From Octopus vulgaris (taxonomy: Eukaryota): a stretch of DNA of 64,000 nt. The stretch's first letter is position 1. Every line of letters starts with the position of its first letter. The translations under genes and the position numbers were made by a program. Positions 41,212-44,694 of this stretch are shown in pieces. The stretch covers positions 144,212,001 to 144,276,000 of the forward strand of contig OX597818.1 of assembly GCA_951406725.2 (NCBI GenBank), read 5' to 3'. The notes beneath the pieces were generated by a model that worked only from the letters and a program-made list of their open reading frames with translations, was not told the DNA's origin and did not search any database.

Positions 41212-44200
41212 CTAGCATTAAAGACCCGTCGTTGCTGGGTCATAGTGCTAGTGCATGTATATATGTGTATATATATGTGTACATATTACATGTACATCTA
41301 TATATATACATCTACACATAAAATACAAAATTCTAAGTTATATCTTGATATCGCTAGTGATAACAATACTCAAAATATATAACAGACTGGAATTGTTAGC
41401 CCGTCTCTTGTAATTTCGATCAATTGTATCTTGTCCTCCCTCTTGTATAGAAGTGTGGCTACAATCCAGCCTACCTCTACTTCGGGCGGGGTGGTGAGCA
41501 TTTTAAATTTTTTTCCGGGACATCCTACGTCCCAGATATAAAGCTAAAAATAAAATATTTCCACTTTGCAAGTTCGAGTCGAGTACTCCCTTGCACGCTC
41601 CGTTGACTCGAACCTTGCTTCTATTGTGGCGAATTTACCGCCTCTGATTAGATACCTTTCATAGTCGCACCAAGACACTTTTCGAAGGTGCTTTCCTCCA
41701 TGTTGTTTTATTATTACCCACAAGGGGCGAACATAGATGGGACAATACATTCTGATGATGGGGTCAGACAAACGAATGGGTTTTTACAATAAATCGGGTT
41801 TAAAAATTTTCATGAATAACAATAAATGGACAAAAATCGAGTGATAGGACAGACCGGAAGACATTACGGGTGGAGTGGGTGCGGGTTTAGCTCGGACCCC
41901 ACGAGCCCCGCCTCCCCACTGATACTTTTGGTTGCACTTGGTATTACATTTATGTTGTAACTTTCATTCGCAACTTCCGTGCTACATCCATCCATCGTTC
42001 TTCATACGCTCTCCTAGTCAGGCATATTCTCTCCAGCCCTATCTTCCTTTTCAGGTGAAAGATGAAATAATTCATCAAACCAGGGCCGGAGATGAACTTG
42101 CCTGACTGTAAACCTTTCATTCTCGTCTTCCATATCACCTCTTTCGCGATTGCTACTACAACGAGAAAACGAAACTTACCTTCATTCACGAGGAAATCCG
42201 GTGGGTCAATTTTTGTAATCGACTCAGTCGACAGCTGTACTCTTCGTGTACCTGACAACAGGTGTTCGGCATAAACCCACACCTCAGACACGTCCGGACA
42301 ATGAACAATCGCGTGCGGGACGGTTTCCCTATCCCGCCCGCATCTTGGACATATCGGACTGTCTTGGCCACCGTGCCTTGCGAGTTTATCCCGAACAGGT
42401 AGAGCTCCTCTGTAGCATTGCCATGCCAGAGACTTCTGGAAGTTGTCCAGTGTCCTTGGCTCGAACGTACGTCGGAACAGACTGGCCAGCTGATTATCGT
42501 CGAGACCTAGGGTTTCCCCAGGGTATCTTCACATTCCGCCTCTACCAACCCTCTATAGAAGAAAGTGGTGGAACCCCCACCGCAGGCGTTGCCCGAGCGA
42601 CGGAATAGCAGGAGAGCCTTGCGACACTCCGTGTACCAAGTACCAAGTTTCGATCTACGACTCAGCCAGGTTTCCCATCCACCGAAACTAGTGAACTTGG
42701 GAAACATCAGTTTTGCTAGCGAAGACCACACCCGTTCACCATCCAGGTAGAGCCACAGATGTCTTAACCTCAGCGCATGTCTGCGCATCATCAGCCAAGG
42801 CATCCCTAGCCCACCCTTTAACGGTTGTTGACAGCAAGTAGAGCGTTTCACAAGTGGTTTCCCGCCCTTCCACAAGAAGTAGAAGAGCTGTCTTTCCAAC
42901 TTGATCAACCACGAATCAGGGCAAGGAACGACGGAAAGGCGGTAGGTGATAACCGATGCGATAAACACATTGGCCACCTCCGCCCTCCCTTTCAGGGATA
43001 GCCACCGCCAAGACCAGGTCTTGGCTACTGCAGCCACCTTGCTCGTTACCTCGCCCCAATTCTTCTCTATTTGGAGGTCTGGACCGAACCAGACCCCTAG
43101 CAGTTTAATCGGACCCTCCGTCCAACGTCCCACGACGCTGTCAGGAGGCATCGACTTGCCTCTCCAGGTGCCGAGTTGCAAGCCGACTGACTTTTCGCGA
43201 TTAACTTTTGCTCCTGTCACCGTCTCGTACACCTCTATGGCCTTGCCTACTTTACATAGGTGGTCCATTTCGGTTACGATGATGGTGATGTCATCCGCGT
43301 ACGCTGACACTGATTTTCCATTACCTGGCTGTCTCGGGATGCCGCTCAGTTTTCGCAGTAATGGCTCAAGAGCCATCACGTACAAAAGCGGGGAGAGCGG
43401 ACACCCTTGACGAACCGAGCGTTTGATTTTGAACGGCTTCGACAAGAAGCCGTTCACCCGAACTACCGAGTCGATGTTATCATAAATTTCGATAATCCAC
43501 CTGAGGAATCCAAGGCTCAGCCCGAACTGTGCCAGGGCAGATACCAGGTAACGATGGTCGACCCTATCAAAAGCTTTAGATTGGTCTAAATGGACCAGTG
43601 CCCCACCCTTGCCAGAATCACTATTAAACCCCTCTATAGTGTACCGCATTAGATGGAGATTATCCTGAATGGATCTGCCCGGAACGGCACATGTCTGTGC
43701 CCCTCCGATCAGACCATCCGCGACACGCGCCAATCTTTTCGATAACACTTTGGCCAAAATCTTCAACTCTGTGTTTAGCAGAGTGATGGGCCTGAAATTA
43801 TCAATGCACTCCCCTTGCTCGGGTCCTTTCTGACGAGAGTCACTACTCCCCGGCGCACAGATCTGGGTATAAGCCCGTTCTGCTGCCAGTTCGCGTAGAC
43901 CTCCGCCAGTAGGTGCCCGAACAAGTCTGGCATACTCTTATATAACTCATAGGGTAGACCATCCAAACCCGGCGCCTTGCCCGCGCCGCAGTCCGCCATT
44001 GCCTCAACCACCTCCTCAGGCGTGATTGGCCCTTCACAGCCCTCCGCATCTCGCCCCGATAAGCGCGGCAGACCGTCGAGTAGGTCCGTAAAGGTCCTCC
44101 TCCTATCCAGTCCGCCGCACTCACCGAAAGTGCTTTCCTCCATGTGTTCAAATCTTCTTTTTTCTCTACATTGTATACTTTATAGATAATAGTCTTTTCT

Positions 44201-44694
44201 TTAATTTAATTTTTTATTATCCACCTGGACTATTCCATTTCTGCACGCTAATTTTATTTTTAATTTATTCCCATTCATGTGAAACCACTTATTCAAGTTC
44301 AAGTCATTGATGCAATTTTATACCAATTGCTATATTTACTTTTGTTATGTTACGATTATATTATACTTTAGTTTGATTTTAATTATTACTTACTATATAT
44401 AATTCAATTGTTATTATTATTTTTATTGTTAAAGTGAAAGTATCTGACATAAAATAGAGAAACGTTTTTGTTTCACTTTTAACACGTAATACTGAATTAG
44501 TGGAGAAGATATGATATTGCTATGGGCTCGCTCTAGGCAAGAAGTTGAACATTTTTTTTTGCCCGTGAAACTACATGGACCCTAAGTAATGCATGTGTAA
44601 AATTTGAATGGAATTGGTTGTGTAGTTCTCAAGTTTTAGGGAAACACACAGACAGACAGACAGACACACATTCTCAGTTATATATATATAAAGA
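41212..44694 (-). mobile_element. Non-autonomous Helitron (about 1.04 kb when empty) carrying a nested LINE
   Basis: 5' TC at 44694 followed by TTTATATATA and (CTGT)n as in the 18718-19016 element; GACCC..GGGTC hairpin (41223-41241) and CTAG end (41215-41212); A|T insertion site. Confidence 0.75.
41704..44129 (-). mobile_element. Tx1/L1-clade LINE, 5'-truncated (RT, C-terminal zinc knuckle, 3' UTR)
   Basis: KAPGLDGLPYE, LDQSKAFDRV, VRQGCPLSPLLY, AYADD and CPRC..ETVPH...HC; frameshifts near 43770 and 42500; 16-bp TSD GTGCTTTCCTCCATGT at 41688-41703 and 44130-44145. Confidence 0.93.

Follow-up and report, generated by a model that had tools for sequence, protein, structure and literature searches.

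Non-autonomous Helitrons are bounded by a 5′ TC and a 3′ hairpin followed by CTAG, insert between A and T, occur as tandem copies and carry captured coding pieces. In the telomeric arrays of Drosophila, HeT-A and TART stand head-to-tail in one polarity, combining autonomous with ORF1-only units and bearing 5′ tags derived from upstream sequence, and the 5′ joining of R2 is helped by homology between its RNA and the target. R2 is co-transcribed from its target, the 28S rDNA (as cited in PMC4494074). The available part of the same source describes Tx1 families that target DNA transposons (Tx1L in Tx1D of Xenopus, Tx1-Mar in Mariner-N4_AMi and Tx1-9_AMi in Harbinger), proposes that such families are co-transcribed from the flank, and presents SINEU as a dependent partner on a Tx1 target, with tandem insertions sandwiching a duplication (PMC4494074). 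Non-autonomous LINEs that retain ORF1, namely HeT-A, HAL1 and Ag-Sponge, have Jockey, L1 and CR1 origins in the accessible portion of PMC5786205. Active L1-Tx1 families are listed in an octopus in the accessible text of PMC13282606, in which the words "target" and "nested" do not appear.

We analysed a 64,000-nt stretch of the Octopus vulgaris genome (contig OX597818.1, positions 144,212,001 to 144,276,000), hereafter the window, which contains a Tx1-like LINE inside a Helitron, both on the minus strand:

41212–44694, minus strand: non-autonomous Helitron interrupted by the LINE, recognised by its termini and empty copies, with ~1,188 3′ ends genome-wide
44660–44694, minus strand: Helitron 5′ end, a TC-(TA)n start at the A/T junction, of the design seen in RepHel-coding copies
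41212–41241, minus strand: Helitron 3′ hairpin and CTAG end, as in the termini of other host loci
41704–44129, minus strand: 5′-truncated Tx1-like LINE of family A, the 3′ 2,426 of ~5,250 bp, with RT and zinc domain and two frameshifts
44130–44145, minus strand: upstream copy of the 16-bp target-site duplication, which supplies the residues MEES
41688–41703, minus strand: downstream copy of the 16-bp target-site duplication, adjoining the LINE 3′ end
41704–41750, minus strand: 3′ tail common to the LINE and the ORF1-only partner families

Elsewhere in the window, a different LINE family that looks RTE-like by eye is represented by several broken copies (9974–10576, 51169–53397, 57802–58641 and 62200–63447), and, at 45470–45785 and 46111–46907, a fragment that by eye is GIY-YIG-like and of Penelope type and a GC-rich tandem repeat.

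The Helitron termini that the original prediction had placed around the LINE were all located, with the 5′ boundary A/TC at 44695/44694, the 3′ hairpin GACCC..GGGTC at 41223–41241 and CTAG/T following at 41212/41211. Without the LINE the element measures 1,041 bp, in agreement with the empty copy of ~1.04 kb that had been proposed as a check, and its 3′ end recurs ~1,188 times in the genome when up to two mismatches are allowed. Exact empty junctions numbered 284, against 0 for a reversed-pattern control, and the empty copies join the same two arms, so both ends belong to one element. Among 39 host loci, a pattern search matched the 5′ boundary in 34, with strict A/TC in 24, and CTAG/T was present in 31 (37 had the 3′ end); loci L053/L150 carry head-to-tail tandem copies. 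The host thus combines a 5′ TC, a 3′ hairpin plus CTAG and insertion between A and T with no duplication, and we file it as a non-autonomous Helitron. RepHel-coding Helitrons with open frames and ends of the same design are present in the genome, and extended sequence common to them and the host was absent from 12 of the 12 RepHel copies read. Many RepHel frames of 1,500–1,744 aa (genome C2, C4 and others) gave identical scores, which point to a young autonomous Helitron family. Host copies themselves differ from their own majority sequence by ~1–3.5% in most windows. An RNA gene was considered as the target and rejected, Rfam returning sub-threshold matches only, mostly on microsatellites.

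The inserted LINE is 2,426 bp long, with a GC content of 0.52, a CpG observed/expected ratio of 0.92 and RVT_1 and zf-RVT domains, which bears out its description as a GC- and CpG-rich 2.4-kb element; the left host arm is also CpG-rich (observed/expected 1.04), so that a high CpG content is not peculiar to the LINE. The window contains the 16-mer GTGCTTTCCTCCATGT at two places only, 41688–41703 and 44130–44145, on the two sides of the LINE, as expected of the predicted 16-bp target-site duplication. The copy begins at base 2821 of 5248 of the full-length copy L041, and the duplicated target joined to this base accounts for the MEES start of the reading frame, as had been proposed. Relative to L041 it is 99.7% identical and carries two 1-bp deletions, which break its ORF2. 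The window LINE is an ordinary dead member of family A, useful in that its truncation exposes a clean 16-bp stagger.

The 1,131-aa ORF2 of L041 contains an APE endonuclease, an RT and a C-terminal zinc domain, and its best solved relative is the L1 ORF2p (E 6e-65). Among the matches listed, its closest named relative was an Argonauta protein at 58% identity, and one match bears the automatic name Transposon TX1 protein. A quick RT tree of 22 rows, comprising 21 of the 120 matches listed and built without curated Tx1 references, grouped family A with the Argonauta protein. Family A is called Tx1-like here on the strength of architecture, behaviour and an automatic name rather than of a referenced tree.

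A search of the genome with the LINE 3′ junction, the check originally proposed, yielded 1,597 candidates, and all 40 scored matches spanned host and LINE at 96–100%; among them, 39 other loci were 98–99.7% identical to the window in the LINE and 83–98% in the host arm. As this query contains host sequence and is biased, the search was repeated with the LINE only, and 30 of its 40 matches were read: 22 lay at the host site, four behind another unit and four elsewhere. A census by exact tail pattern, which also catches partner family F, returned 110 matches, of which 101 were read. The same host base was adjoined by 69 of these 3′ ends, exceeding the level of 20% of flanks in one repeat that is used to define target preference in the available part of PMC4494074; another 18 adjoined the 5′ end of another member (12 by script, six by eye), including one pair, at L171, outside any host. 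The remaining 14 were off target, representing ~10 events, nearly all at ACAT-like cores, so specificity is strong and not absolute. Two off-target copies of A lie in a short satellite (L130) and a few bases before a tRNA-like sequence (L131, genome C25).

Among 88 units of family A, 54 were full length and 21 had an open ORF2; truncation or rearrangement, at differing points, affected 24, and a further 10 ran past the edge of the retrieved sequence. The 16-bp duplication was found in the window copy and at L067, and duplications of 11–19 bp were seen by eye at four off-target sites. Family A is site-specific for one base inside the Helitron. Independent insertions at the same host base strongly support both the Helitron-targeting Tx1 family and the target-primed insertion that had been suggested from the window alone.

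The original prediction had also raised the possibility that rolling-circle transposition spreads LINE and Helitron together. In its favour, the window element and many filled copies retain both Helitron ends, and the genome contains RepHel-coding Helitrons with open frames and similar ends; spread of the composite is nevertheless not supported. The truncation junction of the window occurs once in the genome, near-identical LINEs sit in hosts with a median identity of 93.6%, and in the tandem Helitrons at L053/L150 just one copy is filled. Comparison of the downstream arms of 68 filled and 30 empty hosts gave ~93% identity in all comparisons and a star-like tree with filled and empty copies mixed. 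Only one of 381 LINE pairs at least 99.5% alike had near-identical host arms, and one of 2,278 filled-filled pairs had hosts more than 98.5% alike; the outer flank, 35 kb away, is common to both members of that pair, which represents a local duplication. The same content in the same host within unrelated flanks was not found among the 68 filled copies compared. Spread by rolling circle is refuted for these copies, could persist as rare events among unsampled ones, and is overall highly improbable.

At least four ORF1-only families occupy the same Helitron site as family A and end in a 3′ tail like that of A. Families B, C, D and F are 1.7–1.9 kb long and contain a single ORF1-like frame without RT, the combination, together with a 3′ tail common to an autonomous element, that characterises HAL1- and HeT-A-type elements. 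B shares with A a 47-nt tail at 91% and little else at the DNA level. A CCHC knuckle was found by pattern in the ORF1 of A, B, C, D and F; Pfam matched zf-CCHC in the ORF1 of B and returned no match for that of A. The ORF1s of A and its partners are 29–60% identical to one another, making the partner families old lineages. B, C or D sits directly on the host 31 times. The shared tail and site make it likely that the partners borrow the enzyme of A in trans.

In three partner units (B in L138, C in L152 and C in L144), A>G accounts for all or most of the private changes (46/46, 18/20 and 10/10), and no such hypermutated copies were seen among 82 A units. The pattern is consistent with passage of these units through edited RNA, fixed by reverse transcription. 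Further units of ~1.8 kb at L277, L279, L142 and L143 match D at the tail only and are probably more partner families. A C/D tail pattern gave 561 matches, a figure that is not a count of C/D, since the first 30 comprised 19 C/D units, ~7 copies of a SINE and four other LINE copies. The SINE is abundant (L205, L206, L207, L209, L222 and L227, around position 1500), has a head that is tRNA-like by eye and resembles the octopus OK family. Its 3′ tail of ~45 nt is almost the same as that of C/D and suggests this Tx1 lineage as the partner LINE of the SINE. An older autonomous relative at L269 and L270 (genome C1) is ~80% identical to A, has a C/D-type tail and, in the two copies read, is located outside the Helitron.

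In 88 filled hosts, the arrays contain from one to at least nine units. C or D lay upstream of A, B or F 18 times and never the reverse, eight units upstream of C/D being unclassified. The target 12-mer is repeated at the start of full-length A, B and F units and, as the repeat is also present at an off-target site, travels with the element; C and D lack the 12-mer and join ~11 bases further upstream. If a later upstream insertion duplicates the leader, a rare leader should be repeated by the next upstream unit, and in 20 of 31 pairs the upstream unit was indeed flanked on either side by the rare leader, against a mean of 2.0 under permutation (0 of 10,000 permutations reached this value). Among cross-family or host pairs, 9 of 17 showed this repetition. 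These observations make it likely that arrays grow at the 5′ end.

An alternative, that arrays extend at the downstream end, next to the host, or chiefly through tandem duplication of DNA, finds support in a nearest-neighbour age test, with the upstream unit younger in 25 pairs, the downstream unit younger in 36 and 8 ties; A looked younger than its upstream B or C neighbour in 19 of 27. The test is confounded by nearly complete sampling of A and incomplete sampling of B and C. Some arrays (L141, L140) do hold near-identical neighbours and repeated identical junctions, and variation in 5′ ends would account for the differing C-C junctions and for the carried host pieces. Rare leaders shared by different families around an upstream unit speak against such growth, as do the A>G-marked single units, which point to RNA passage, and the absence of A from all 20 arrays read among the 31 with B, C or D on the host. 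We regard this alternative as unlikely and retain growth at the 5′ end. Between C/D units at L042, L044, L140 and L144, the junctions contain 26–75 bases of the upstream host arm. Contigs of two runs whose RNA nature is a guess span the 5′ part and include a junction from B to A; they are not taken as evidence.

A profile of six family ORF1s was searched against the host, and the following features surround the insertion:

41406–41703, minus strand: downstream part of a decayed, frameshifted Tx1-type ORF1 fragment, strongest at 41406–41657 (E 1.4e-14)
44146–44217, minus strand: upstream part of the same ORF1 relic, collinear and weak alone (E 0.1)
44179–44184, minus strand: putative promoter element TATAAA, located within the relic at 39 nt upstream of the nick

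Weak collinear pieces at 41651–41698 and 44161–44217 flank the insertion, and ORF1 matches in 30 empty hosts reached E 1e-12, the best reversed control giving 1.2. By these matches, the Helitron carries a decayed fragment of a Tx1 ORF1, within which the target site falls. The relic is 30–40% identical to each family, frameshifted and internal, with neither knuckle nor 3′ tail, and capture of an internal fragment would fit these features better than a truncated insertion.

The relic might be the ancestral target, the families having once inserted into the ORF1 of a fellow Tx1 element before capture by the Helitron multiplied the site about a thousandfold. The position of the insertion site within the relic agrees with this, as does the far greater age of the families (ORF1s 29–60% identical) than of the host, whose copies lie within a few per cent of their majority. 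However, no donor with a long frame was found among the best 150 of 9,232 candidates or, in a weak test, in the protein collection; a similar motif occurs at the matching ORF1 position in family D only, and no insertion at that position was noticed in the maps. An ancestral target of this kind seems to us improbable.

Units lying away from the host arm carry 3–11 host bases before the leader (L184/L185, L063 and L226; L171 by eye), from which we infer an RNA start ~30 nt after the TATA, and the 5′ ends of C and D also join ~30 nt after it. The TATAAA is present in 44 of 47 filled and 32 of 34 empty hosts, a flat result as a test of conservation; four truncated off-target insertions showed by eye no TATA ~30 nt upstream, and at some C/D junctions the 26–75 host bases exceed what a start 30 nt downstream of the TATA would permit. 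It is plausible that the host arm lends a promoter to the LINE families, and likewise plausible that the leader guides targeting.

Taking these observations together, we consider it very probable that a young, site-specific Tx1-like family targets an older, abundant Helitron and is accompanied by ORF1-only partners that likely borrow its enzyme. We propose that RNA synthesis would begin within the host arm, a few bases upstream and ~30 nt after the TATAAA; that the ORF2 endonuclease would nick before ACAT(G) and prime reverse transcription there, with a second cut ~11–19 nt downstream; and that the 5′ leader of the RNA may pair with the target, favouring completion at the host site. Leader pairing would rebuild the site at each new 5′ junction, so that arrays would grow at the 5′ end, and because C/D units would not rebuild it, A, B and F would not stack upstream of them. 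Partner RNAs would be copied in trans through the shared 3′ tail. The Helitron would have multiplied the target before the insertions, and filled copies would not detectably have been carried since.

The endonuclease alone could instead read a longer stretch of DNA, as in Tx1L or R1, leader and TATAAA being by-products. In favour of this, the window copy, truncated and leaderless, landed precisely on the site and left a clean 16-bp duplication, the ACAT core is common to nearly all off-target sites, the TATA test is flat between filled and empty hosts, and the endonuclease sets target choice in the standard view (available part of PMC4494074). Yet off-target sites share little beyond 4–6 bases, insertions within arrays, at places that lack the downstream host sequence, also use variant leaders, and the upstream joins of C/D lose the same ~11 host bases at many loci. 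Targeting by the endonuclease alone is a real possibility, though not the one we prefer. Leader-guided targeting by the Tx1-like family could be carried further: the ORF1 scrap captured by the Helitron would form a TATA promoter and have been spread to ~1,200 places, and an old LINE consortium, one family autonomous and several ORF1-only, would then have adopted it for promoter and landing site alike, with the site chosen by pairing of RNA leader and DNA, rendering targeting partly RNA-guided, self-renewing and reprogrammable. This extension is speculative, and we would rather doubt it than adopt it.

The locus shows a way in which site-specific retrotransposons of old standing can gain a target that is young, harmless and present in many copies, produced by another class of transposon. 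With 21 open ORF2 copies, ~100 insertions, variant leaders and off-target events, it offers a natural series that bears on the role of the RNA 5′ end in site choice and on second-strand joining, open questions in LINE integration that are equally relevant to site-specific LINEs for gene insertion. ORF1-only elements and HeT-A-like polar arrays are extended to a Tx1-type lineage away from telomeres. Transposon-targeting Tx1 families are known; a literature search, which did not extend to Repbase, closed papers and supplements that may hold such families, found in print neither a Helitron-targeting Tx1 family with ORF1-only partners, nor a Tx1-derived ORF1-only element, nor an ORF1-relic target.

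Like the HeT-A/TART arrays, those of the octopus are head-to-tail and polar, combine autonomous with ORF1-only units and bear upstream-derived 5′ tags; unlike them, they are interstitial, lie at ~100 or more dispersed Helitron copies, carry endonuclease-type duplications and have no known host function. Site specificity, a putative target-supplied promoter and apparent 5′ joining via target sequence in the RNA are reminiscent of R2, which differs in its endonuclease class, its single ORF and its essential RNA gene target. Compared with the usual Helitron captures, the captured piece is here a LINE ORF1 and the landing site for related LINEs. As with Tx1L, Tx1-Mar and Tx1-9_AMi in the available part of PMC4494074, an APE-RT LINE prefers a non-autonomous DNA transposon, with a dependent partner on the same target and tandem insertions; the octopus target differs in being a Helitron with the site in a Tx1 ORF1 relic, the arrays are long and ordered, and the partners are protein-coding ORF1-only families rather than snRNA-headed SINEs such as SINEU (PMC4494074). 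The partners resemble HeT-A, HAL1 and Ag-Sponge, as described in the accessible portion of PMC5786205, in having ORF1 only, a shared 3′ end and a presumed autonomous enzyme acting in trans, but they are of Tx1 type and form at least four divergent families on one internal site.
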